Translations under genes and position numbers: made by a program | DNA from: a bacterium | GTDB lineage: Bacteria; Chloroflexota; Dormibacteria; Aeolococcales; Bog-877 | Direction of reading: 5' to 3' | Assembly: GCA_021827985.1 (NCBI GenBank) | Contig: JAKATL010000007.1 | Coordinates: 13,764-77,763 of the forward strand | DNA: 64,000 nucleotides | Notes under the pieces: model-generated | What the model saw: only the letters and a program-made list of their open reading frames with translations | Database searches by the model: none | What the model was told of the DNA's origin: nothing | In this document: positions 1,713-52,582 of the stretch, one piece after another | Position numbering within the stretch: position 1 is the stretch's first letter | Layout: each line of letters opens with the position of its first letter

Positions 1713-2066
1713 CTACAGCCGCGGCACGACCCGGTGTCCGGCGCCCGTGAGTGCCGCAACGGCCTCCTCGAGTCGGCCGGAGGGGACTAGGACGTGATCG
1801 GTGTCGAAGGTCGAGATCACGAAGACCGGAATGCCCGCCCGCGCCAGGGGCTCCAGCAGGGTCAGCAGCACCCCGATCAGGTCGTCGGCGAGCGGGCCTT
1901 CCACGCTCAGCAGCCGCCACGGTCCGCTGCGCCTTCCCCCGTCTGCCGAGAACTCCCAGGAGTGGACGATGGAGAGCTCGTCCGCGGTGCGGCTGACGCT
2001 GGCCCAGCCTCCGGACCAGGCCCACGTGGGGATCTCTGCCTCCGCCTCCAGTCGGGAGATGGCCAT
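1713..2066 (-). CDS. ACT domain-containing protein
   Basis: The C-terminal region LADDLIGVLLTLLEPLARAGIPVFVISTFDTDHVLVPSGRLEEAVAALTGAGHRV has the ACT-fold pattern. The start was trimmed to the internal ATG (MAISRLEA) because the longer ORF would overlap the CBS gene. Confidence 0.55.
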   Translation of the reverse strand: MAISRLEAEAEIPTWAWSGGWASVSRTADELSIVHSWEFSADGGRRSGPWRLLSVEGPLADDLIGVLLTLLEPLARAGIPVFVISTFDTDHVLVPSGRLEEAVAALTGAGHRVVPRL

Positions 2067-2145
2067 CTCCGTCGGTGAGAGGTGCAGGGTCCTCACTCGG
2101 GAGACAGTACCGGCAGGGGCGGGAGGCGCGCCAGGGGATTCCTCC

Positions 2146-9195: not shown

Positions 9196-9636
9196 GCGGG
9201 TACCTCCGGGTTGGAGGGTGAGACCAGTCTATGAGTCGATGATTGGCTGAACATTAGATGCATCTCATGTGACCTCGGCCTAGGGGGCGATCCTCCAGCC
9301 TGAGGCGGCCCGGGCCTGGAAGTGGAGTGGAGGCCCCCCGTGACTGCCGACCCGCGGATATCATGGTGCCGAGGGTCACTGCTCCCTCGACCTCCAAGCA
9401 GCCCTCCCGGCTGGATAGTGGTTGCCGTGGGCGACGCGGCAGCCCAGGGAGGTGTCTTGAGTTCTGGGTGGAGTTTTCCTTCGACGAGGATTGGAGCCGG
9501 GCTCCCGCAGATGCTCGTTTCCGGGTACCGTCGGCGCCCTCTGCTGAGGGGAGGGCCGACCCGGGGGTCCCTCGCCCCCCTCGGTCACCACCCAACGCCG
9601 CCATCCCCGGCGCCTACGTGGTCATCCATTTGTGCC

Positions 9637-25224: not shown

Positions 25225-25374
25225 GCCCGCGCAGCGACCAGCCTCGGGGTATTGCTACCAATACTAAGCCTAGGATTTGTGGGTATCGGCTGGACCACCG
25301 CCCGGCGCCCGGACCTAACATCGGGGCCAGCAACAAAAGTCCCGCGGCGCCCGCACCGCGGTGGAGGCCGGCCC

Positions 25375-27391: not shown

Positions 27392-28021
27392 TCAGCGCCG
27401 TCCCGCCCCTGGCGATCGCCCGGCGCGGTGGCGGCGCTGCAGCTCCTCCATGACGTCGGCCAGTTGCAGATCGCGCGCGGTCAGGAGCACGGCCGTGTGA
27501 AACCAGAGGTCGGCCACCTCCGCCACCAACTGCCCCTGGCTGTCCTGGTGGGCGGCCAGGATCACCTCGACCGCCTCCTCGCCGACCTTGCGGGAGATGG
27601 ACGGGATCCCCGCCTCGAGGAGGGCCGCCGTGTAGGAGCCCGGGGGCGGCGCCTGGCGGCGCTGGCGCAGCGTGTCCTGCAGCTGCTCGAGCGTGATACC
27701 GGGCTGGGGGAAGCAGGACCGCCGGCCGAGGTGGCAGGCCGGCCCCTGCGCCCGGACCGAGACCAGGAGCGCGTCGCCGTCGCAGTCGGCCTGGATCGCC
27801 GCCACCAGCATCACCGCTCCGGAGGACTCCCCCTTGCGCCAGAGGCGCTGGCGGCTGCGGCTGTAGAAGTGAGCCTCTCCGGTCTCCGCGGTCAGCTGCA
27901 GCGCCTGGCGATCCATGTAGGCGACCATGAGGACGGCGCCACTGAGCGCGTCTTGGACCACGGCCGGGACCAGACCCGCCCCGTCGAAGCGCACGCCCGC
28001 GGGCACCTTAAGGGTCATAGC
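27392..28021 (-). CDS. hisI: bifunctional phosphoribosyl-AMP cyclohydrolase / phosphoribosyl-ATP pyrophosphatase
   Basis: The HisI part shows [58 protein letters not shown]...DCDGDALLV...[12 protein letters not shown]. The HisE part shows [27 protein letters not shown]...[16 protein letters not shown]. The start was trimmed to MTLKV. Confidence 0.85.
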
Positions 28022-28770
28022 CGTACCTTGACCCCTTCGGAGTGCAGGCGCGCCTTGACCGCTGCCACCGTCCACCGGCCCGAGTGAAAGATGGAGGCAG
28101 CCAGTGCTGCATCGGCGTGGCCGGCGGTGAGCACCGCGACCAGGTCCTCCGGTCCCCCGGCCCCGCCCGAGGCGATCACCGGGATACGCACGCTGTCGGC
28201 GACCGCTCGGGTGAGTTCCAGGTCGTAGCCGCCGGCGCCACCGTCTGCGTCGATGCTGGTCACCAGGAGTTCGCCGGCTCCCAGCCTTTCCAGTTCAGCG
28301 GCCCACCCCAGGGCGTCGAGACCACTGGGGCGGCGGGCCCCATGGGTGTAAACCTCCCAACCCTGCTGGCGGCGCCGCGCGTCGATCGAGACCACCACGC
28401 ACTGAGAGCCGAAGGTCGCGGCCGCGCGGGCGACCAGATCAGGCCTGGCCACGGCGGCGGTCTGCACCCCCACCTTGTCGGCGCCGGCGCGCAGCAGGTC
28501 GCGGAAATCGGACAGGGACCGGACCCCGCCGCCCACCGTGAAGGGGATGGAGAGCTCGCGAGCGACCCGGGTCACCATGTCGAGGGTCGCCGGGCGGCTC
28601 TCGATGGTGGCGTTGACGTCCAGGAGGACCAGTTCATCGGCTCCCTCCTCGGCATAGGCCCGGGCGCGCTCGACCGGGTCTCCCTGGTCTCGCAGACGGC
28701 GGAACTGGATCCCCTTGACCACCCGGCCGTCCGCCACATCCAGGCAGGGTATGACGCGCTTAGCCAGCAT
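28015..28770 (-). CDS. hisF: imidazole glycerol phosphate synthase, cyclase subunit
   Basis: [23 protein letters not shown]...[12 protein letters not shown]...[10 protein letters not shown]...[12 protein letters not shown]...EVYTHGAR...[15 protein letters not shown] is the conserved HisF pattern. Confidence 0.95.
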
Positions 28771-29377
28771 CGAACCCGGGGGCGCTCAGCCCAGCGAAGT
28801 TCCTCAGCAAGCGCAGCCCGGCCGTTCCGCTGCGTTCCGGGTGGAACTGCACCCCGGCCAGCGGGCCGGCGGTCACCGCGCTCACGAAGGACACTCCGTG
28901 GGTGGTGCGGGCGCAGGCCACCTCGCCCGACAGCGGCTCCGCCACGTAGGAGTGGGTGAAGTAGAAGGCCTCACCGTCCACCCCCTCCAGGAGGGCGCTC
29001 CAGCGGGTGCTCTCGACCGTGTTCCAGCCCGTGTGAGGAACCTTCTCCCAGGTGGCGAGGCGCACCACCCGCCCGGGGATGACTCCCAGGCAGGGCTGGC
29101 CGTCCTCCGCACTCCGGTCGAAGAGGAGCTGGAGCCCCAGGCAGATGCCGAGGTACGGTCGGCCCGACCGCAGGAAGGCCTGCAGGGCCGGCAGGAGGCC
29201 GGATGTTCGCAGCCCGGCCATGGCCGCCCCTGCCGCCCCGACCCCGGGGAAGATCAGGGCGTCGACGGCGTCCAGCTGGCTCGGGGTGCGCACCAAGGTC
29301 CAGGCCGTCTCCAGCCGGTCCAGCGCATAACCCACGCTGGCGAGGTTGCCGCCGCCCAGGTCCAGCACTCCGATCAC
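28760..29377 (-). CDS. hisH: imidazole glycerol phosphate synthase, glutamine amidotransferase subunit
   Basis: The class-I glutamine amidotransferase triad context is present ([15 protein letters not shown]...[14 protein letters not shown]...[13 protein letters not shown]...[10 protein letters not shown]). Confidence 0.9.
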
Positions 29378-29964
29378 AGGATCCCCTTGGTGCTGGGGGC
29401 GCGGCCCAGGACCGTGGGATCCCGGCGCACGGCCTCCCGGAGGGCGCGCGCGGTCGCCTTGAAGGCCGCTTCGGCGACGTGGTGGTCGTCGGCGCCGGCT
29501 GCGGTCAGGTGCAGAGTGATCTGGGCGGTGCGCGCCAGCACCTCGAAGAAGTGAGCCAGGAGGGAGGCCGGTATGCCCCCTGCCCCGGGCCCGCTGAGGG
29601 CGATCTTGACCACCCCCAGTCCCCGCCCCGAGCAGTCGACGGCCGCAGCCGCCTGGCTCTCGTCCATCGGCACGACGGCGTGGCCGAAGCGCTCGATTCC
29701 CAGCCGCTCCCCCAGGGCGGCGGCGAACGCCGCTCCCAGCACGGCGGCCACATCCTCCACGGTGTGGTGGCTGTCCACCTGCAGATCGCCTGAGGCGCGC
29801 ACCAGGAGGTCGAAGTGGGCGTGGCGGGCCAGGCTCTCCAGCATGTGGTCGAAGAACCCGATCCCGGTGGCCACCGAGGCGTCCCCGCTGCCATCCAGGG
29901 ACAGGGTCACCGACACCTCGGTCTCCCGGGTCCGCCGCTCCTCGTGAGCTCGCCGCTCATCCAT
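29374..29964 (-). CDS. hisB: imidazoleglycerol-phosphate dehydratase
   Basis: RRTRETEVSVTLSLDGSG...TGIGFFDHMLESLARHAHFDL...DSHHTVEDVAAVLG...HAVVPMDESQAAAAVDCSGR...HHVAEAAFKATARAL carries the HisB metal-binding His/Glu motifs. Confidence 0.9.
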   Translation of the reverse strand: MDERRAHEERRTRETEVSVTLSLDGSGDASVATGIGFFDHMLESLARHAHFDLLVRASGDLQVDSHHTVEDVAAVLGAAFAAALGERLGIERFGHAVVPMDESQAAAAVDCSGRGLGVVKIALSGPGAGGIPASLLAHFFEVLARTAQITLHLTAAGADDHHVAEAAFKATARALREAVRRDPTVLGRAPSTKGIL

Positions 29965-32257
29965 CGCGGCTAGCCCTCCAGCTGGCCAGCCCCTCGAGCA
30001 GCCGCGCGTTCTCCGGCTCGGACCGGATTGTGACCCTCATCCAGCCGCCGAGCGCGTGGGCGGGACCGAAGGCTCGCACCACCAGCCCCCGGGCGGCCAG
30101 GAAGTCGGGGAGCCCGGCGGGGCAGGTGACCAGGAGGAAATTGGCCGCGGACATGCGCACCTGGAACCCCAGCTCCTGAATCTGTCGTTCCAGTGCCCTT
30201 CCCCACCGGCGGAGCTGCAGCACCCTGGCCCGCATCTCCCCCGCCGCCTCCAGGGAGTGCGTGGCGAGCGCGGCCGAGCAGGAGCTCACCCCGGCCGGGG
30301 GCCGGACCCGGGCGAGGGTGGCGGCCAGTTCGGGCCCGGACAGGGCGTAGCCAACCCGCGCCCCGGCCAGCCCGAAGGCCTTGCTCAGAGTGCGGACCAC
30401 GACCAGGTTCGGCAGCTGAAGCACCAGGCCGGCGCTGGTCGCGCCGCTGAACTCGTAGTAGGCCTCGTCGGCCACCACCACGCCGGGGCTGGCCAGGGCG
30501 AGCTCTTCGACGAGGCCAGGGGGGAGCAGGCCGCCAGTCGGGTTGTTGGGGTTGCAGACCCAGGTGAGGCGGGCATGGCGCCCCGCCTCCAGCAGGCGAT
30601 CCGGGCTGTCGGCGGGGACGGTGATGACCTGGCCCCCAGCTGCCTCGGTCAGGACGCGGAACATCGCGTAGCTGGGGTCGGGGATGACGACCGGGTCGAG
30701 GGGCGCGACGTAGGCCGTCGCCACCAGGGAGAGCAACTCGTCGGCCCCGGCGCCGACCGTGATCGCGGAGGAGGGAAGGCCGGTGTAGTCGGCTACGGCC
30801 GAGACCAGGGCGGGGTAGGCGGAATCCGGGTACTCGTGCAGCACCTGAGGCGGCAGGTCCCCCAGGGTGGCGCCCGCCCAAGGGCAGGTGTTGGTGTCGA
30901 AACGCACCACCTCCTCCTCCCTCAGCCCGGCACGGGCCGCTATCTCGGCGCTGGAGGCCTCCCACTCGTAGGGGTGCATGGCGCCGACGCTGCGCCGGGG
31001 GGACGGGGCCGCCCGCTCCGGAGCCGGGGCCGACCCCATCCGCAGCAGGGCCGAGCGCAGGTGGTGGGAGAAGCCCTCGGCGCGGGCCAGCGGCTCGATC
31101 ACCGCCTTCAGGGACGCCAGGCCAGCGGGGGTGATCTCCTGGACCTGCAGGGTGCGCCCGAAGTCGTCCAGGCCCAGAGGGCTGAAGCTGCGCACCGCTC
31201 CCCCCGTCGGGATCACGTGGTTGGCCCCGGTGGCGTAGTCCCCGGCTGCCGCCGGGGAGTGGGAGCCGAGGAACACCGATCCGGCACTCTGGACTCGGGG
31301 CAACCAGCGGCGGGGGTCGCGGCAGGCGAGGATGAGGTGCTCTGGGCCGAAACGGTTGGAGAAGCCCAGCGCCTGCTCGAGCGACTCGGCTCGGTACACC
31401 CTGACCTGAGCCGCCAGCCTCGGGTCCAACAGGCCCCTGACGGCGGCGGCGTGCTCGGGGTCGGTGGAGATGAGAACTCCCAGCGCGTCCGGCGCGTGCT
31501 CCGCCTGGGCTTCCAGGTCGGCGGCCAGCCAGGCCGCGGGAGTGGAGCCGTCACTCACCACCACCACCTCCGAGGGGCCGGCGGGCATGTCCACCGCGAC
31601 CCGGCCGAACACCAGGCGTTTGGCGGCGGTGACGTGGGCATTCCCGGGGCCGAACACCTTGTCCACCGCCGCCAGCGTCTCCGTGCCGAAGGCCATCGCC
31701 GCGATCGCCTGGGCCCCGCCGATGGCGTGGACCTCGGTGGCGCCGGCCAGGCCCGCGGCCGCCAGGATGTGGGGGTGGATCCGCCCGTCCCGGCCCGGCG
31801 GCGCACACAGGACGACCTCCTCGCACCCCGCCAGTCGCGCGGGCGCGCACAGCATGACGACTGAGGAGGGGTAGGGGGCGCGCCCCCCGGGCACGTAGAT
31901 CCCCACCCGACGCAGGGGGCGCCACTCCCGCCACAGCTTCACCCCCGGCCGGACGGACACCTCCTCCTCGGCGAACCGCTGGGCGCATGCCACCCTACTC
32001 AGGTTGGTGGCCGCCGCCTGCAGCGCCTTCACCAGCTCCGCTGGTGCCGCCTGCAGCGCGGCGCTGATCTCCGCCGGCTCGACCCGGCTCTGAGCCACCC
32101 GCACCCCGTCAAACCGCAGGGTGAGTTCTTGGATGGCCCGGTCGCCGCCCCTGCGGACCTGTTCCAGGACGGCGGCGGCCTCCCGTTCCACCTCGGCGGG
32201 GCAACGACTCAGGGGGAGGCGGGAGGGCACGCCGGCCCCCGGGATCTCCTGAATCAA
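29957..32257 (-). CDS. hisD-hisC: in-frame fusion: histidinol dehydrogenase (N-terminal ~440 aa) + histidinol-phosphate aminotransferase (C-terminal ~330 aa)
   Basis: The HisD part carries the NAD- and Zn-binding motifs IYVPGGRAPYPSSVVM, AIGGAQAIAAMAFGTE, FGPGNAHVTAAK, SEVVVVSDG and AEHLIL...GDYATGANHVIPTGG. A ~25-aa linker (MGSAPAPERAAPSPRRSVGAM) follows with no stop codon. The HisC part shows VRFDTNTCPW, the CNPNNPTGG aminotransferase class I/II motif and the PLP lysine context RTLSKAFGLAGARVGYAL. Confidence 0.85.
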   Translation of the reverse strand: MIQEIPGAGVPSRLPLSRCPAEVEREAAAVLEQVRRGGDRAIQELTLRFDGVRVAQSRVEPAEISAALQAAPAELVKALQAAATNLSRVACAQRFAEEEVSVRPGVKLWREWRPLRRVGIYVPGGRAPYPSSVVMLCAPARLAGCEEVVLCAPPGRDGRIHPHILAAAGLAGATEVHAIGGAQAIAAMAFGTETLAAVDKVFGPGNAHVTAAKRLVFGRVAVDMPAGPSEVVVVSDGSTPAAWLAADLEAQAEHAPDALGVLISTDPEHAAAVRGLLDPRLAAQVRVYRAESLEQALGFSNRFGPEHLILACRDPRRWLPRVQSAGSVFLGSHSPAAAGDYATGANHVIPTGGAVRSFSPLGLDDFGRTLQVQEITPAGLASLKAVIEPLARAEGFSHHLRSALLRMGSAPAPERAAPSPRRSVGAMHPYEWEASSAEIAARAGLREEEVVRFDTNTCPWAGATLGDLPPQVLHEYPDSAYPALVSAVADYTGLPSSAITVGAGADELLSLVATAYVAPLDPVVIPDPSYAMFRVLTEAAGGQVITVPADSPDRLLEAGRHARLTWVCNPNNPTGGLLPPGLVEELALASPGVVVADEAYYEFSGATSAGLVLQLPNLVVVRTLSKAFGLAGARVGYALSGPELAATLARVRPPAGVSSCSAALATHSLEAAGEMRARVLQLRRWGRALERQIQELGFQVRMSAANFLLVTCPAGLPDFLAARGLVVRAFGPAHALGGWMRVTIRSEPENARLLEGLASWRASRDG

Positions 32258-33141
32258 GGGATCAGCTTCTCGATCGGGAGCACCAGGATCGACGACGCCC
32301 CGGCCGCCTGCAGCGGACCCAGCTGCTGCCAGACGGTGTCGGCGTCCACCACCGTGTGGATCGCCACCATGCCGGGGTCGGTCAGGTGGATCACCGAGGG
32401 AGATCTCATCCCCGGCACCACCTTTTTGATCCTGTCCACCGCCTCGGCGGGGGCATTCATCATGAGGTACTTGCGGTGCCGCGCCCTGATGACGCTGGTG
32501 AGCATGAGCGCCACCTGCCCGGCGAGGTGATGGCGCGCCGGTCTCAGTTCGCGGGTGCGGACCAGTTCGGCCTGGGAGTCCAGGATGGCGTCCAGGGCCA
32601 CGAGCCCGTTGGTGGCCAGGGTGCTGCCGCTCGCCACCAGGTCGACGACGGCGTCGGCGACGCCCAGCAACGGGGTGACCTCCACCGCCCCTGTGATCTC
32701 AATCAGCCGCACCTCGACCCCCCTTTCCAGGAAGAACCGGGAGCTCACCTTGGGGTGGGAGGTGGCCACCACCCGGCCTCTGAGGTCCTCCGCCCCGGTG
32801 ATCCCACTGTCGCGCGGGGCTGCCAGTTGCAGCCGGCAGCGACCGAAGCCGAGGGGCTCGATCCGGGTCACGTCGACGCCGGCCTCTAGGAGCAGGTTGG
32901 AGCCGGTTATGCCCAGGTCGACCACCCCGTCCTGGACGTACTCGCCGATGTCGTCGGCCCGCAAGAACAGCAGGTCGAGGGGAAAGTTCTCGCAGGGAAC
33001 GAAGAGGCGGCGTTCGTCCTCCTCGAAGGTGAAGCCGGCCTCCCGGAGCAGGGAAACCGCGGGCTGGCAGAGCCGACCTTTGTTGGGCACCGCCAGCCGC
33101 AGCCGGTCGTCGGGGGCGGCGGCTGAAGTCAACGCCGCCAC
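32254..33141 (-). CDS. hisG: ATP phosphoribosyltransferase, long form with C-terminal regulatory domain
   Basis: LRLAVPNKGRL...DLLFLRADDIGEYVQDGVVDLGITGSNLLLE...LVASGSTLATNGL followed by the HisG C-terminal ACT-like domain. Confidence 0.9.
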   Translation of the reverse strand: MAALTSAAAPDDRLRLAVPNKGRLCQPAVSLLREAGFTFEEDERRLFVPCENFPLDLLFLRADDIGEYVQDGVVDLGITGSNLLLEAGVDVTRIEPLGFGRCRLQLAAPRDSGITGAEDLRGRVVATSHPKVSSRFFLERGVEVRLIEITGAVEVTPLLGVADAVVDLVASGSTLATNGLVALDAILDSQAELVRTRELRPARHHLAGQVALMLTSVIRARHRKYLMMNAPAEAVDRIKKVVPGMRSPSVIHLTDPGMVAIHTVVDADTVWQQLGPLQAAGASSILVLPIEKLIP

Positions 33142-33443
33142 CGGTCGAGCATCTTGCGGTAGCCACCCCGGCCGAAGCGCAGCCAGGTGTTGACCCGGCT
33201 GATGGTGGCAGGGCTGGCGCCCGTCTGGGCCGCGATCGCCTGATAGTGGAGGCCCTGGTCGAGCATGCGCGCCACCTGCCAGCGGGTGCTCAGGGCCTGC
33301 AGCTCCTGGGCCGTGCAGAGATCGCGCAGGAAGTCGGCCGTCTCCTCGGCCGAGGCGAGCTGCGCGATCGCCTCGAAGAGCTCGCGGGTGGCGGGGTTGG
33401 TGAGTTCGGGAGGAGGGGGGGCGAAGCTGGCTTGCTTCATCAT
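33129..33443 (-). CDS. TrpR-like YerC/YecD-family DNA-binding protein, first gene of the minus-strand his operon
   Basis: ELFEAIAQLASAEETADFLRDLCTAQELQALSTRWQVARMLDQGLHYQAIAAQTGASPATISRVNTWLRFGRGGYRKMLD matches the YerC/YecD family nearly residue-for-residue in the conserved core (ELQALxxRWQVAxMLxxGLxYxxIAxxTGASxATISRVN...GxGGY). It overlaps the hisG start by 13 nt. Confidence 0.8.
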   Translation of the reverse strand: MMKQASFAPPPPELTNPATRELFEAIAQLASAEETADFLRDLCTAQELQALSTRWQVARMLDQGLHYQAIAAQTGASPATISRVNTWLRFGRGGYRKMLDRWRR

Positions 33444-33460
33444 GCTAGCATGATATCATG
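33439..33460. promoter_or_regulatory. perfect 16-bp palindrome ATCATGCTAGCATGAT plus a third ATCATG half-site, overlapping the yerC-like start codon in the divergent his promoter region
   Basis: Seen directly as ATCATGCTAGCATGATATCATG within the only strongly AT-rich stretch for kilobases (followed by TTATTTGAGAGG). It lies between the divergent yerC-like/hisG... operon and hisA. Confidence 0.5.
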
Positions 33461-33471
33461 TTATTTGAGAG

Positions 33472-34191
33472 GTGCGCGGATTGCTGGTGATCCCGGCCGT
33501 CGACGTCCTCGACGGTGCGGCGGTGCGCCTGGTGCAGGGCAGGTATGACCGGGTGCTTCGAGCTGAGCTCGGCCCTCTGCAGATGGCGCGGCGGTTCGCC
33601 GACCAGGGCGCCCGCTGGCTCCACGTGATCGACCTGGATGGGGCGCGCGCCGGCCGGTGGCACAACCTGGAGCTGATCGGGCGCATCGCTGCCGAGGTGG
33701 GCGCTCGGGTGCAGGCCGGTGGCGGAGCCAGGAGCCGGGAGGGCATCCGCGCCGCCCTGGAGGCCGGAGTCAGCCGTGTCATCATCTCGACCGCGGCCCT
33801 GGGCGATCCCCACGAGTTCAGTGCCCTGGCAGCGGAGTTCGGCCAGAGCCTGGTGGTAGGGCTCGATGCCCGCGGCGGACACCTCCTGGCGCGGGGGTGG
33901 GAGGTCGACACCCACCTGGAGCTGGGATCGGCCGCCAGATCGCTGGTCGACCTCGGGGCGCGTCGGCTGCTCTACACCGACACCCAGCGTGACGGGATGC
34001 TCTCCGGGGTTGACGCGGAGGTGGTGCCGGAACTGGTGCGACTGGGAGTCCCGGTGATGGTGGCGGGCGGCGTCCGGGACCCCGCGGACCTGGTCCGCTT
34101 GCGGGAGGCGGGGGCGGAGGCCGCCATCGTGGGACGCGCCCTGCTGGAAGGCACCCTGGACCTGGCTGAGGCGCTGGCCCTATATGCGTGA
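33472..34191 (+). CDS. hisA: 1-(5-phosphoribosyl)-5-[(5-phosphoribosylamino)methylideneamino]imidazole-4-carboxamide isomerase (HisA; possibly PriA-type)
   Basis: LLVIPAVDVLDGAAVRLVQGRYD...LHVIDLDGARAG...RVQAGGGARS...VIISTAAL...LVVGLDARGG...GW...RRLLYTDTQRDGMLSGVD...PVMVAGGVRD. GTG/TTG start region. Divergent from the yerC-hisG operon. Confidence 0.9.
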   Translation: MRGLLVIPAVDVLDGAAVRLVQGRYDRVLRAELGPLQMARRFADQGARWLHVIDLDGARAGRWHNLELIGRIAAEVGARVQAGGGARSREGIRAALEAGVSRVIISTAALGDPHEFSALAAEFGQSLVVGLDARGGHLLARGWEVDTHLELGSAARSLVDLGARRLLYTDTQRDGMLSGVDAEVVPELVRLGVPVMVAGGVRDPADLVRLREAGAEAAIVGRALLEGTLDLAEALALYA

Positions 34192-34263
34192 GTCGTTGCG
34201 GAGCGGGGCTGGGAGCCCGTCTGCCATGGAGCTGGCCGCCCCCCTTGCCTGGAACTGCCGCCG

Positions 34264-35103
34264 GTGAGCCCTGGTGCGGGCGGCGTCGATCTTCACGTCC
34301 ACAGTGAGTGGTCGTGGGATGCCCCCGGGGGGTCGATGCGGGAGACCTGCGTTCGTGCCCAGAGTCTGGGCCTGCAGGTGGTCGCCTTCACCGACCACGC
34401 CGACCACACCGCCATCGCCGGTGGCCGCCACCTCGACCTCGCTGGCTACCGCGAAAGCCTCGCTCGGTGCCGCCGGGCGTTTCCCCGGCTGGCCATCTGG
34501 AGCGGCGCGGAGCTGGGGGAGCCGCACCGCTTCCCGGTGGAGACGGCGGAGCTGCTGGCTCAGGGGGACTTCGACCTGGTTCTGGGATCCGTGCACGCCA
34601 TCGAGGTCGGGGGCCGGCTCGAGGATTGCAGCATGGGGCCGGGCGGACAGGGGAGCGACCCGGTGGCCTGGATGAGGCTCTACTGGGGCGAGACCCTGCG
34701 CCTGCTGGAGTCCGCCGGTTCATTCCAGGTTCTGGCCCATCTGGAGTACCCCAAGCGATACTGGCCATCTGGCGGGCAGCCGTACCGGGCCGCCGACTAC
34801 CGAGAGGAGATCCAGACGGTGCTGGAGCAGGCAGCGCGCTGCGAGCTGATCCTGGAGATCAACAGCAGCGCAGGTTTGGAGCCGGAGCGGGGGCTGTGCC
34901 CTGGACCGGAGGTCGTTCGCTGGTGGCGTGCCGCCGGTGGCCGCGCCGTGTCGGTGGGGAGCGACGCGCACCGGCCCGGTGCCGTCGGAAGGGGCCTGGA
35001 TCGGGCGCTGGAGGCGGCGGCCTGGGCTGGGTTCACCTCCGGCCAGATTCTGGGCGGCACCCTCGCCGCCCGCCCCTTAAGTCTCGACGGCCCTCCGTGG
35101 TGA
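34264..35103 (+). CDS. hisJ: PHP-family histidinol-phosphatase
   Basis: The PHP domain metal-binding motifs are present (VDLHVHSEWSWD, VVAFTDHADH, LVLGSVHAIE, VLAHLEYP, VSVGSDAHRPGAVG). GTG start. It lies between hisA and the class-III aminotransferase. Confidence 0.8.
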   Translation: MSPGAGGVDLHVHSEWSWDAPGGSMRETCVRAQSLGLQVVAFTDHADHTAIAGGRHLDLAGYRESLARCRRAFPRLAIWSGAELGEPHRFPVETAELLAQGDFDLVLGSVHAIEVGGRLEDCSMGPGGQGSDPVAWMRLYWGETLRLLESAGSFQVLAHLEYPKRYWPSGGQPYRAADYREEIQTVLEQAARCELILEINSSAGLEPERGLCPGPEVVRWWRAAGGRAVSVGSDAHRPGAVGRGLDRALEAAAWAGFTSGQILGGTLAARPLSLDGPPW

Positions 35104-36290
35104 GCGAGCTTGAGGCTCGGGCACGCGCCGTCCTGTGCGACAGCTATGCGCGTCTTCCCGTGACGCTGGAGCGGGGAGACGGGGTCTGGGTGTTCACCGA
35201 CTCCGGAGAGCGACTCCTGGACGCGGTCGGGGGCATCGCGGTCAACGTGCTGGGGCACGGAAATACACGGCTGGTGGAGGCGGTGGCGGCGCAAGCCCGG
35301 GCGATGATCCACGCCAGCAACCTGTACTACACCCGGCCCCAGGTGGAGCTGGCAGAGCGGTTGGTGGCCACCGCCTTTCCCTCCCGGGTCTTCTTCAGCA
35401 ACAGCGGAGCGGAGGCAAACGAGGCGGCCATCAAGATAGCCCGCAAGTGGGGGCACCTCCGGAAGGACGGGGCCACCGAGATCGTCACTCTCAGCGGGGC
35501 ATTCCACGGCCGCACCCTCGGTGCCCTGGCGGCGACCGGGTCGGCGCGCTACAGCCAGTTCTTCCAGCCTCTGCCCGGGGGGTTCCAGCAGGTGCCACGA
35601 GGAGATCTCGCCGCCCTGGAGGCGGCGCTCGGGGACACCACGGCGGCGGTGATGCTGGAGCCGGTGCAGGGGGAGAGCGGAGTCTTTGCCCTCCCGCTCG
35701 ATCACCTTCGGGCCATCCGCGACCTCTGCGACCGGCACCACTGCCTCCTGGTGGTGGACGAGATCCAGTCAGGTATGGGTCGGACCGGAAGGATGTGGGC
35801 CCACCAGTGGGCGGGGGTGACACCCGACATCATGACGGTGGCCAAGGGGCTGGCCGGGGGGCTGCCGATCGGGGCCACTCTGGTGGGCGCCCGGGCGGAT
35901 GTTCTCGAGCCCGGTGATCACGGCAGCACCTTCGGTGGCAACCCGCTGGCATGCGCGGCAGGGATTGCCGTCCTCGACACGATCTCGGAGCAGAACCTGG
36001 TGGCCAACGCAGCCACGGTGGGGGACCGGCTGCGGGCCGGGATCGCCGCCCTGGAGGACGCTGGGCGTCCCATCCTCGAGGTCCGGGGTCTGGGCCTCAT
36101 GCTCGGGGTGGGGCTGCGCCGGCCCATCGCCCGGGCGGTGGCGACCGCGGCTCTCCAGGGTGGCCTCCTTCTCAACCCGATCGGGCAGCGGACCCTCCGG
36201 CTCCTGCCGGCGCTCACCCTCGGCGCAGCCGAGGCCGACCTTGTGGTCGAGCGGTTGGACCGGGCGCTTCTGGCGGTGGCGGCTCGATGA
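35100..36290 (+). CDS. class-III (acetylornithine/LysW-gamma-aminoadipate semialdehyde) aminotransferase, ArgD/LysJ-like
   Basis: PLP-dependent class-III signatures are present (NSGAEANEAAIKIARKW, LLVVDEIQSGMGRTGRMWAHQW, the lysine in DIMTVAKGLAGGLPIGA, GSTFGGNPLACAA). The GTG start overlaps the hisJ stop (GTGA). The real start is 264 codons inside the listed ORF 34308..36290. Confidence 0.85.
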   Translation: MSELEARARAVLCDSYARLPVTLERGDGVWVFTDSGERLLDAVGGIAVNVLGHGNTRLVEAVAAQARAMIHASNLYYTRPQVELAERLVATAFPSRVFFSNSGAEANEAAIKIARKWGHLRKDGATEIVTLSGAFHGRTLGALAATGSARYSQFFQPLPGGFQQVPRGDLAALEAALGDTTAAVMLEPVQGESGVFALPLDHLRAIRDLCDRHHCLLVVDEIQSGMGRTGRMWAHQWAGVTPDIMTVAKGLAGGLPIGATLVGARADVLEPGDHGSTFGGNPLACAAGIAVLDTISEQNLVANAATVGDRLRAGIAALEDAGRPILEVRGLGLMLGVGLRRPIARAVATAALQGGLLLNPIGQRTLRLLPALTLGAAEADLVVERLDRALLAVAAR

Positions 36291-42651: not shown

Positions 42652-43766
42652 ACTTGTCCCCGGCACGGGCCGGTCTTGCCGGGCCGTTGGTCCCAGCTGG
42701 GGGACCCAGTGGCGCGGAGGTTGCCCTGCTCCGGGGCCTGGTCGCGGTGCCCAGCCCGTCCGGGGAGGAGCGCCCCGCGGCCGACTGGCTGCTGGCCCGG
42801 CTGGGGGAGATGGGCGTCGCGGCGCACCTGGACCAGGTGGGAAATGTCATTGCCGCGGTGGATCCGACTGCCGGGTCGGGTGCGAGCCAGGGCCCGATCT
42901 ACCTTCTTGGCCACATCGACACAGTGGCCGGGTTCTGGGAGCCGAGGGAGTCAGGGGGCACGCTCTGGGGTCGTGGGAGCTCGGACGCGAAGGGGCCCCT
43001 GTGCGCCTTCGTGGCGGCCGCGGTGCGGGCCAGGGAAAGCCGCCGGCTGCGCCGGCGGGTCCTGATTCTCGGCGCCGTGGAGGAGGAGACCACCTCGCGC
43101 GGGGCCCGTCACCTGGCAGCGTCCCTGCCGCCGCCGGCCTTCCTGGTGGTGGGGGAACCCTCAGGGTCCGGTCGCGTCGTGGTGGGCTACATGGGCAGCC
43201 TCAGGTGCCGGCTGGAGGTCAGTCGCGGCGTCGCCCACACCTCTGGCCCCCATCCGACCGCTGCCGAACTTGCCATCGAGACCTGGTCGTCGGTGCGCCG
43301 GCTGGTCGACCGTCTGAACTCGGGGCGCAGGGGATTCGGGGCGGTCCAGCTCCACCTCCTGGGCTTCGACACCGTCTCTGATGGGCTGATGGAGACCGCC
43401 GCCTTGAACCTGAGCTTCAGGCTACCCGTCGGCCTTCCCTGCCAGCAGATGCTTCTCCACCTCCGCCGGCTCCATCCGCGCGCCAGCTGGCGCGCGGATG
43501 GCGGGGAAGACGCGGTCGTGGTGCCGCGCCGCGGGCCGCTGCCGGCCGCCTTTGCACAGGCGATCAGAGCCGCGGGGGGTGACCCCGGGTGGCAGCACCG
43601 CCTGGCGACCTCGGACCTCAACGTGGTCATGCCGACCTGGCGCTGCCCTGCGGTGGTCTACGGCCCCGGCGACTCCCGCTCCGATCACACGCCGGCAGAG
43701 GCGATCACCCTCTCCGACTACGGGCGAGCCATCGGGGTCCTCACCTCGGTCCTGGGCTCGCTGTGA
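42648..43766 (+). CDS. lysK: LysK/ArgE-family M20 metallohydrolase ([LysW]-lysine hydrolase)
   Basis: LLGHIDTVAG, GRGSSDAKGPLCAFVAA, GAVEEETTS and VVGEPSG are the M20 His/Asp/Glu metal ligands. The GTG start overlaps the lysZ stop. The listed ORF 42357.. is a spurious 5' extension. Confidence 0.8.
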   Translation: MNLSPARAGLAGPLVPAGGPSGAEVALLRGLVAVPSPSGEERPAADWLLARLGEMGVAAHLDQVGNVIAAVDPTAGSGASQGPIYLLGHIDTVAGFWEPRESGGTLWGRGSSDAKGPLCAFVAAAVRARESRRLRRRVLILGAVEEETTSRGARHLAASLPPPAFLVVGEPSGSGRVVVGYMGSLRCRLEVSRGVAHTSGPHPTAAELAIETWSSVRRLVDRLNSGRRGFGAVQLHLLGFDTVSDGLMETAALNLSFRLPVGLPCQQMLLHLRRLHPRASWRADGGEDAVVVPRRGPLPAAFAQAIRAAGGDPGWQHRLATSDLNVVMPTWRCPAVVYGPGDSRSDHTPAEAITLSDYGRAIGVLTSVLGSL

Positions 43767-50738: not shown

Positions 50739-52582
50739 TCCCCGAGAACATCCCGCAAGAGCCCGTACGTATGTGTTAGTCTGCAGTTGTGAACCTGACT
50801 GAGTGGGCCCGCCGCCAAGGGATCCACCCCCACACCGCGTACCGATGGTTTGAGAGCGGCACCCTGCCGGTGCCGGCGGAGCGGGTGGGGCCGCGCACCA
50901 TCCTGGTGAACGTCGGCGCGGCCAGCGCGCTCCCGGCAGCCGGCCTGGGCCTCTATGCGCGAGTCTCGACCCGTGGGACGCAATCGAGCGGACCCCTGGC
51001 TAGATCCTCGGCCGTGCCCGCCGTCTTCAATTGCTGATTGGGGCAGAGCCAGGACCACCTGGACCTTGCCCCCACCTGCGTCGATGATAACGCGGCGGAC
51101 AAGCAGGCGTACAACTTGGCGCCGTCCGTCGAAGTCAAGTTGGCCGATCCCCTCAGAGACCCGCGCCGTGAAGGCCTCCAGGGATTGCAGCACGGCCGTC
51201 CAGTAGTCGCGGCCGCTGCGCCGGTCCGCCTGTGCCGCAAGGTCAGCTTCCAGACGCCCTAGGTGGTCCTTGAGCTCGGCGAGGCGCTGGCGCAGGTCTG
51301 TCTGGTCGAGCTCACCGTACTGGTAGAGGTCGACCAGCCGCTTCTGCTGGCTCCGCAGCCTGGCCCGGCGCCGCTCCGCCTCCCGTCGTTGCGCAGAATC
51401 CGTGCTGTCGGCCCCCAAGGTATCGATGCGGCGCTGGTACTCCCGCATGAGCGTCCCGGGGTCCTCACGAGCCTCCCGGACTGCGTCCCAGACCGCCTCC
51501 TCAAGACCCTCGGCTCTGACCGCTGGCGTCGGGTAGCGGCAGGCGCGACGATCACCGACGTTGAGCGGGTCAGCGGCACTGCACCGGTAAAGACGTCGCC
51601 CGTGGCTGACTGCCCCGGACATGGCAGCACCGCAGCTGGGGCAACGAACCAGACCGCCCGACAACAGGTAGCTGTGCCGCTTGTTGTTCCTCGGCGAGAA
51701 GCGGAAGTTCTCGGCAAGCTGCTGCCGGGCCCGTTTGAAGGTGGCCTCGTCGATGATCACAGGAACCCTGATAGCGACCCAGTTCTCCGTCGGCTGCACC
51801 TGGCGGACGGTCTTCGGCCGGTTCGATGGAGATGACCCGCCGGCTGATTCTGCCTTCACATAGGCGTTCCGCGCGTACAAGAACCGGCCTGCGTACCCTT
51901 CCTGCCGGAGCATGCGCCCGACCGTCGAGGCTCGCCAGTGGTCACCTCCCGCCGGTGCTGGCAGACCTCGCTCAGTGAGTACTCGGGCGATCTGCCGACA
52001 GGACTGGCGGTCCTCGACCAGCAAGCGGAACATCTCCCGCACCACATCGGCCCGGTCATCATCGATGGTCAGAGTCGCCCGCCTTGATCCGGACCGCGCG
52101 ACGTACCTGAAGCCGTAGGGAACGAAGCCCCCCATCAGGGCTCCCTCCCGCGCCCGAAAGAGCTTGCCTCGGCGCATACGATCTCGGATCACCTTGCCCT
52201 CGAAGTCGGCGAAGTCTCCCAGGATGTTCTCGATGAGCTCCCCTTGCGGGCTCGCGTCCGAAGGGTGCTGCACGAACTCCAAACGTGCTCGGCGCCTGAG
52301 CTCCTTAAGGAGGAGGGCCTGATTGCAGCGGTCCCGCGACAGCCGACCTATCTCGTGGATAACGATCACGTCGACGTCGCCCCGGGCGACTGCGTCGCGT
52401 AGGCGGTCGAGCGCGGGGCGGGCGAGATCGTACCCTGATCGGGCCTCGTCGACGAACTCGGTTGGAGTGTCGTAGCCTTTGCGCTGAGCATAGGTGCGCA
52501 GGGCGTCCAGCTGGCTCTCGACGGTCTCCTCGCGCTCCTGCCTCTCAGAGCTAACTCGGGCGTATAGGGCGACTCGTGTCAT
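50735..52582 (-). mobile_element. large serine recombinase (site-specific integrase/resolvase family) of an integrated element
   Basis: The N-terminal resolvase catalytic domain is MTRVALYARVSSERQ...SQLDALRTYA...DVIVIHEIGRLSRD. A recombinase domain, a zinc ribbon (CPSCGAAMSGAVSHGRRLYRC) and a coiled-coil (LRSQQKRLVDLYQYGELDQTDLRQRLAELKDHLGRLEADL) follow. An AGGGGGGA RBS precedes the ATG. The last ~130 codons are low-complexity and may be read-through. The gene's 3' end abuts the truncated MFS gene. Confidence 0.85.

Follow-up and report, generated by a model that had tools for sequence, protein, structure and literature searches.

What does a gene of the YerC/YecD type do at the head of a histidine operon? 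The question is raised by hisR, which comes first in the his operon carried by a 64,000-nucleotide stretch of contig JAKATL010000007.1 (positions 13,764 to 77,763 of the forward strand; GenBank assembly GCA_021827985.1; Dormibacteria). This whole stretch is referred to here as the window. The initial annotation of the window treated YerC/YecD proteins as having no established function, which is out of date: the product of B. subtilis yerC is HisR, a prediction that goes back to Leyn et al. 2013, and purified HisR from R. gnavus bound its box only with L-histidine in a fluorescence polarisation assay (Ashniev et al. 2022, PMC9413887). The same annotation suggested an autoregulated repressor of histidine biosynthesis acting at an ATCATG-containing palindrome in the promoter shared with the divergent hisA. 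This predicted role is backed by the comparative data described below and by the published work on HisR (PMC9413887). We consider it likely that the window gene encodes HisR and that this protein, with histidine as co-repressor, controls both his units through a 20-bp operator. The coordinates of the genes and sites are given in Table 1.

The hisR product begins MMKQASF (longer N-terminal stretch: MMKQASFAPPPPELTNPATRELFEAIAQL). It matched PF01371 (Trp_repressor) in a Pfam profile search at 1.9e-24, with 86 bits against a cutoff of 27, and TIGR02531 (yecD_yerC) in an NCBIfam search, with 87.7 bits against a cutoff of 42.2; judged from these profiles, its family membership is unambiguous. Its relatives in the PDB are 3KOR, 3G1C (E. 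eligens HisR) and 3FRW, with E-values of 1e-17 to 1e-19. The alignment to 3G1C is full length (E 1.2e-18, residues 14-101), and in it the stretch TGASpATISRVN of the window protein pairs with TGASTATISRVN, the recognition helix of the helix-turn-helix (HTH) motif. The recognition helix TGAS-ATISRVN is common to the window protein and all three structures. On these comparisons the 104-aa open reading frame (ORF) encodes HisR, the TrpR-family member that responds to histidine and the equivalent of B. subtilis YerC. TrpR proper was ruled out as its identity by the score for TIGR01321 (19.5 bits, below the NCBIfam cutoff of 67.25), by the neighbours, which are all his genes, and by the single box in the divergent his promoter; trp or aro linkage or sites were not found in the window.

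On the minus strand the order is hisR-hisG-hisD::hisC-hisB-hisH-hisF-hisIE, with neighbouring ORFs overlapping by 4 to 61 nt, and ORFs and profiles bear out the co-linear operon described earlier. The plus strand carries, divergently, hisA, a PHP-family gene and a class-III aminotransferase gene. Linkage of a yerC-like gene to his genes proved to be strongly conserved, the hisA <-> hisR-hisG layout being kept in about 90 related loci from Dormibacterota-like genomes, Thermoleophilia metagenome-assembled genomes (MAGs) and soil metagenomes. An identical HisR protein is found on at least 24 soil-metagenome contigs with the same gene order, and a Candidatus Dormiibacterota MAG is the source of the nearest named relative (75% identity). 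Contigs with homologues at 59-88% identity all have the PHP gene and hisA on one side and hisR, hisG and hisD::hisC (hisC alone in one) reading away from them on the other. Among GTDB species representatives, two Thermoleophilia MAGs come closest (L001 and L002, 55-58% identity), and both also keep the hisA <-> hisR-hisG-hisD order. These two were the only loci used from a GTDB single-protein scan that mostly gave Firmicutes and Brevundimonas HisR, too distant for footprinting; two Firmicutes-type contexts (P0012, P0018) were excluded from motif work. A metagenome scan gave 544 relatives, from which 80 loci with 47-63% identity were kept. Among these, hisG directly follows hisR in nearly all loci with enough flank, and hisA is divergent in about 70.

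Between hisA and hisR the loci have in common a 20-bp palindrome (consensus CATGTTAGCATGCTAACATG), whose symmetry extends to 16-20 of 20 positions in most relatives and which is near-invariant at TA (positions 6-7 and 14-15) and T3/A18. A box scoring 15 bits or more was found for 88 of the 96 related loci compared, among them relatives with as little as 47% protein identity. The matches at this threshold number 129; every one is upstream of hisR at a distance of no more than 260 nt, and the remainder of the 360,597 nt covered by the 96 loci has none. Three of the eight loci without the box are truncated, and the other five have the classical HisR box ACTTTA-N6-TAAAGT, near-perfect in four and with a degenerate right arm (TAGTGT) in L034. 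The window box is at 33441..33460 and reads CATGATATCATGCTAGCATG in the sense of hisR, its last three bases being the hisR ATG. The family position weight matrix (PWM) gives one strong match in the window (26.8 bits), the next non-overlapping match scoring -2.8. A PWM built from loci outside the window's subclade also ranks 33441..33460 first, with 24.0 bits, a value reached in 0 of 300 shuffles. Arms of the window's own subclade read CATGCTA, and the consensus arm of the wider clade is CATGTTA.

The five loci with the classical box (L034, L055, L066, L070 and L096; about 50-54% identity) have ACTTTAGTTAACTAAAG or GCTTTAGCCTGCTAAAGC, of the Firmicutes type, upstream of hisR. A TTGACG -35-like hexamer stands ahead of the box in four of them, and L066 has TTGACGCC. 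In none of the five is hisA divergent. One further locus (L071, 798..2573) has hisF-hisIE after hisR instead of hisG and retains both the box and the divergent hisA.

The initial annotation had placed the binding site in a different frame, on a perfect 16-bp palindrome centred on CTAG. This palindrome, ATCATGCTAGCATGAT (33439..33454), does cover the hisR start codon (CAT on the plus strand, 33441..33443); it occurs once in the window and is directly followed by a third ATCATG at 33455..33460. The AT-rich stretch reported for the divergent promoter is real as well, 33432..33471 being the lowest-GC 40-mer of the 64 kb (0.35 vs. a mean of 0.70). As a feature significant in itself the 16-mer was rejected, with three perfect 16-bp palindromes found in the window and 2.8 expected. 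Because such palindromes are as common as chance predicts, the significance of the site rests on comparative evidence, and what the relatives conserve is the overlapping 20-bp box, with two 7-bp arms and 6 bp between them (7-6-7). The dyad centre of this conserved unit (33450/33451) is 4 bp from that of the 16-mer (33446/33447). Most relatives read TTAG...CTAA and are not palindromic about the CTAG centre, which argues that the perfect 16-mer, not kept in them, arises locally from the repetition of CATGnTAn within the box, at a period of 8 bp, and is not the conserved unit.

The other two perfect 16-bp palindromes of the window, at 2055..2070 and 43479..43494, are both GC-rich (GGAGATGGCCATCTCC and CGCGCCAGCTGGCGCG). 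Other low-GC patches lie at 9228..9267, 25250..25289 and 50765..50804 (GC 0.40-0.45 vs. a mean of 0.70); the last region holds TGTGTTAGTCTG at 50764..50791, where the HisR PWM scores below 0 bits.

The periodicity nevertheless gives rise to an alternative that we regard as unlikely: a dimer on the CTAG-centred 16-mer, or tandem dimers every 8 bp as TrpR on CTAG repeats, with the 20-bp frame as one register. Three CATGnTAn units follow one another every 8 bp in the window, the family consensus amounts to 2.5 repeats of an 8-mer with secondary PWM matches 8 bp on either side, several relatives have three to four TA cores at the same period, and TrpR binding has been given as GNACT half-sites with an 8-bp spacer (PMC9413887). 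However, it is the 20-bp frame and not the TTAG/CTAA-centred sequence that is palindromic in most relatives, the published HisR and TrpR motifs are centred between two TA/CTAG cores, and the additional units in the window are weak (10.0 bits for the third unit, CATGATGa, and 8.9 bits for the distal unit, TCAAATAa). A second distal box shifted by 8 bp was rejected; at 9-10 bits it is too weak, and it largely reflects the internal 8-bp periodicity of the main box. Nine of the relatives (L030, L031, L037, L039, L040, L043, L100, L102 and L104) have three to four TA-core units upstream of hisR in a strict 8-bp period, for example GTGTTAGC ATGCTAAT ACGCTAGG ATAGCGCC. These arrays recall tandem TrpR operators, and by analogy more than one dimer may bind there.

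Taking the 20-bp box as the unit, it could still be a compact bidirectional promoter only, made up of divergent extended -10s and an inverted ATG/CAT, in which case HisR would have other sites or other target genes. The motif TGnTAnnnT appears at box positions 2-10 on one strand and 11-19 on the other, the invariant TA at 6-7 and 14-15 would be the -10 T and A, and the start codons stand at fixed distances that fit leaderless mRNAs. For hisR, the first in-frame start either coincides with box positions 18-20, as in nine contexts with the window among them, or comes 5-10 nt after the box; for hisA, the start coincides with positions 1-3 in 18 contexts and precedes the box by 5 nt in 27. In each geometry class the TANNNT formed by an arm stops 6-8 nt short of the start codon, with no space left for a Shine-Dalgarno sequence, and such a spacing would be the signature of leaderless mRNAs. 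The window TANNNT is at -12..-7 from the hisR ATG, a geometry as in the relatives, and the window hisR mRNA is probably leaderless. Candidate -10 elements reading TATCAT would then lie at 33450..33455 on the minus strand for hisR and at 33454..33459 on the plus strand for hisA. The most compact arrangement is seen in L001 (5984..6003) and L002 (5975..5994), where hisA and hisR are 14 nt apart, the box CATGTTACCATGCTAATATG spans exactly the hisA start codon (CAT) to the hisR ATG, and both genes look leaderless.

Promoter function of this kind, without HisR, is quite improbable as the whole explanation. In the symmetrised PWM, positions outside the -10s (1/20, 3/18, 4/17 and 9/12) are conserved, whereas position 19, the would-be last T of a -10, is C in 31% of sites. 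The arms covary symmetrically, the complementarity observed for the pairs 5/16, 2/19 and 4/17 being reached in 0, 7 and 12 of 1000 column shuffles, respectively. The type of box also follows the recognition helix of HisR when the two are compared over L034-L113: ATISRVN(T/S)W goes with the arm CATGCTA, TTVTRVAHW with CATGTTA, ATISRVNQW (variants RVSQW in L070 and RVGQW in L096) with the ACTTTA box, and ATITRIASW with the longer arrays of three to four units at an 8-bp period. In L051 a divergent his gene is absent and ruvA is 132 nt from hisR, yet a box palindromic at 16/20 positions still abuts the hisR ATG. The box is found at no other promoter in the 360 kb of flanking sequence, and its 7-6-7 layout is also that of the HisR box for which binding was shown by experiment.

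A chance palindrome or restriction-site cluster (NheI GCTAGC, EcoRV GATATC, CATG) with no regulatory role, which the initial annotation named as what would undo its proposal, can be dismissed: the three perfect 16-bp palindromes match the 2.8 expected, but AT-rich ones are expected at 0.01 per window, and the homologous box in the same place in 88/96 related loci already refutes it. Control at the RNA level, by an mRNA hairpin that hides the hisR start or by a protein sensing His-tRNA, is similarly remote. Palindromes can in principle form hairpins, and a His-tRNA effector had been raised earlier; however, the upstream half of the palindrome would be untranscribed if hisR is leaderless, the intergenic gap (28-43 nt in the window, 14 nt in L001) leaves no space for a leader, a gathering-score Rfam scan of the whole window matched no family, T-boxes included, and for this family the effector known from published work is free L-histidine (PMC9413887), so that the His-tRNA effector is without support. 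The T-box and leader-peptide attenuators of his operons in Firmicutes, Actinobacteria and Proteobacteria do the same job, shutting down his genes when histidine or His-tRNA is abundant, but these are RNA-based and need a long leader.

The mechanism that we favour, a HisR operator shared by both his units, would work as follows. In the presence of ample histidine, HisR would carry L-histidine and bind 33441..33460 as a dimer, contacting the 7-bp arms CATGCTA and CATGATA, each with its invariant TA core and separated by 6 bp. The box would cover the overlapping -10s of the back-to-back promoters together with the transcription start and ATG of the probably leaderless hisR-hisIE mRNA. Because the box overlaps both -10 elements, HisR at this position would block both promoters and switch off hisR-hisG-hisD::hisC-hisB-hisH-hisF-hisIE, autoregulation included, as well as the divergent hisA-hisJ. 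When histidine falls, HisR would leave the DNA and both units would be transcribed, with hisG translation presumably coupled to that of hisR through the TTGA/GTGA stop-start overlap. The family, the synteny, the conserved and specific box, the covariation between arms and between box and helix, and the start-codon geometry were computed here. Histidine as co-repressor and the 7-6-7 operator layout are taken from the published survey (PMC9413887), and binding by the window HisR, the transcription starts and leaderless translation are what we infer.

Several points weigh against this mechanism. The arms of the window box are unequal (CATGCTA and CATGATA), and the site scores below most relatives (27 vs. 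33-38 bits). Training of the PWM used these same intergenic regions, so matches near hisR are partly circular, and the independent PWM evidence consists only of the lack of matches elsewhere and the test with the PWM from distant relatives. Covariation of the arms and of the helix is confounded by the common descent of the loci. The box is at the same time a pair of abutting TGnTAnnnT extended -10-like elements, and promoter function alone could explain part of the conservation; a strict scan for sigma-70 promoters and terminators in 33250..33650 found nothing, so to speak of promoters here is to use TANNNT/TGn geometry only. At 3/7 half-site positions the box departs from the two published consensus motifs, despite a recognition helix near-identical to that of Firmicutes HisR. 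It matches neither cacTTTAnnnnnnTAAAgtg nor TGTAnTArnnnnyTnTTACA, having no more than the CA...TA frame and the spacing in common with them; HisR motifs are lineage-specific, so that a match to a consensus is not a strict requirement (PMC9413887). Finally, the organism is known from metagenome contigs alone.

The closest known system is HisR itself (YerC; R. gnavus and E. eligens 3G1C), which belongs to the same TIGR02531 family. HisR has been reported from 492 genomes, 395 of Firmicutes and 97 of other phyla, its operators being lineage-specific 20-bp palindromes that stand upstream of genes for histidine biosynthesis and histidine transport and often of hisR itself (PMC9413887). The published motif cacTTTA-N6-TAAAgtg has the same 20-bp 7-6-7 layout with TA cores, and the targets, his genes and hisR itself, are those predicted for the window. 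The half-site is different, being CATG(C/T)TA in the window clade and cacTTTA in Firmicutes, Actinobacteria and Synergistetes or TGTAnTA in Proteobacteria. E. coli TrpR, which acts at the trp, aroH and trpR operators, has the same PF01371 fold family, an amino-acid co-repressor and autoregulation, and its operator TGTACTA-N6-TAGTACA has the 7-6-7 layout and the CTAG cores 8 bp apart of CATGCTA-N6-TAGCATG. TrpR regulates trp and aro genes, whereas the window HisR sits with his genes, and most of the residues through which TrpR contacts tryptophan are replaced in HisR (PMC9413887).

HisR is thus a known kind of repressor, and its embedding in an autoregulated operon is a known arrangement, hisR as the first his cistron having been described in several phyla (PMC9413887). 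What is new is the lineage, Dormibacterota-like and with a large sister clade of soil bacteria that includes Thermoleophilia MAGs, and the distinct half-site. Also new, as predicted here, is a single box that is shared with the divergent hisA-hisJ and fused to the putative -10s and to the hisR start of a probably leaderless mRNA. In the accessible part of the 2022 survey the HisR-bearing Actinobacteria are Coriobacteriales and Eggerthellales only, and Dormibacterota and Thermoleophilia are not named (PMC9413887). The HisR regulon is accordingly extended to a large clade of soil bacteria that this text does not mention, and an "unknown function" flag is replaced by a specific annotation, a HisR repressor with an exact predicted 20-bp operator in an uncultured soil lineage. 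The PWM can be used for annotating his regulation in these MAGs, and the covariation of helix and half-site offers natural variants for the study of protein-DNA recognition. The general understanding of histidine regulation is unchanged.

A bolder proposal, which we hold tentatively and as slightly less probable than its opposite, is that a single 20-bp palindrome combines the HisR operator, two abutting divergent extended -10s and the points at which one or two leaderless mRNAs begin to be transcribed and translated and that, separately, the helix variants (RVN-T/S, RVN-Q, TTVTRVAH and ATITRIAS) and the half-sites (GCTA, TTTA and GTTA) make up a natural specificity code for the HTH of the TrpR family. 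If this is true, a bidirectional promoter under metabolite control could hardly be much smaller than the box of the L001/L002 type.

Table 1. Genes and sites of the his locus in the window, with the boxes of three relatives.
Feature	Position	Strand	Details
hisR	33129..33443	-	YerC/YecD-type TrpR-family repressor gene; 104 aa; first cistron of his operon
Predicted HisR operator, 20-bp 7-6-7 box	33441..33460		plus strand CATGCTA-GCATGA-TATCATG; hisR sense CATGATA-TCATGC-TAGCATG
16-bp palindrome	33439..33454		ATCATGCTAGCATGAT; centred on CTAG 33446/33447; overlaps predicted operator, offset
12-bp palindrome	33449..33460		CATGATATCATG; reads TGaTATCAT, extended -10-like, on both strands
Shine-Dalgarno-like GAGAGG	33467..33472	+	8 nt upstream of hisA TTG 33481
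hisG	32254..33132	-	long form with HisG_C regulatory domain; PF01634 and PF08029
hisD::hisC fusion	29957..32257	-	766 aa; histidinol dehydrogenase (PF00815, residues 22-407) and histidinol-phosphate aminotransferase (PF00155, residues 471-756)
hisB (imidazoleglycerol-phosphate dehydratase, IGPD)	29374..29964	-	PF00475 at 3e-54
hisH	28760..29377	-	TIGR01855 at 199.9 bits
hisF	28015..28770	-	TIGR00735 at 332 bits
hisIE	27392..28075	-	NF002747 at 249 bits, residues 28-217
hisA	33481..34191	+	divergent from hisR; PF00977
PHP-family histidinol-phosphatase-like gene (HisJ type)	34336..35103	+	PF02811 at 5.4e-14
Box of relative L027			CATGCTACCATGCTAGCATG
Box of relative L024			CATGCTACCATGATAGCATG
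Box of relative L025			CATGCTAACATGCTAGCAGG

The start codons of some genes depend on the comparison with relatives. The initial annotation gave a 13-nt overlap between hisR and hisG, which holds if hisG starts at GTG 33141; a start at TTG 33132 gives a 4-nt TTGA stop-start overlap. The junction is TTGA or GTGA, in frame with hisG, in 7/7 relatives checked (L024, L025, L027, L028, L030 and L031 among the loci compared), and the shorter overlap is therefore the likelier one, so that hisG probably starts at TTG 33132 and is translationally coupled to hisR. For hisA, TTG 33481 is most likely the start, with GTG 33472 and GTG 33487 as the alternatives chosen by gene callers; in L024 (88% identical), where a TTG is the one in-frame hisA start listed, GAGGAG precedes it by as many nucleotides as the Shine-Dalgarno-like GAGAGG precedes the hisA TTG of the window. 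The true start of hisIE may lie downstream of 28075. The PHP ORF could begin as early as 34264, and its product scores 72.9 bits against TIGR01856 (hisJ_fam), below the cutoff of 90.2.

The hisD::hisC fusion is also called on independent related contigs (L018-L024 and L027-L030), with products of 764-768 aa. In L025 hisC is separate and the operon is without hisD. A fusion of hisD and hisC is not among the his fusions named in the accessible part of PMC8305728 (hisNB, hisHF, hisIE, HIS4 and HIS7).

In the divergent unit, hisA and the PHP gene are separated by 144 nt (34192..34335), and the class-III aminotransferase ORF (ArgD/LysJ-like, 35100..36290) overlaps the PHP gene by 4 nt. On one contig of the Dormiibacterota relative (L029, 711..1115) a Cas12f1-like TNB (TnpB-type) ORF adjoins the PHP gene and is absent from the otherwise identical L028. 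In relative L030 the genes for LysW and LysX come next after the aminotransferase gene, and the divergent unit may therefore link histidine genes with lysine or arginine genes.

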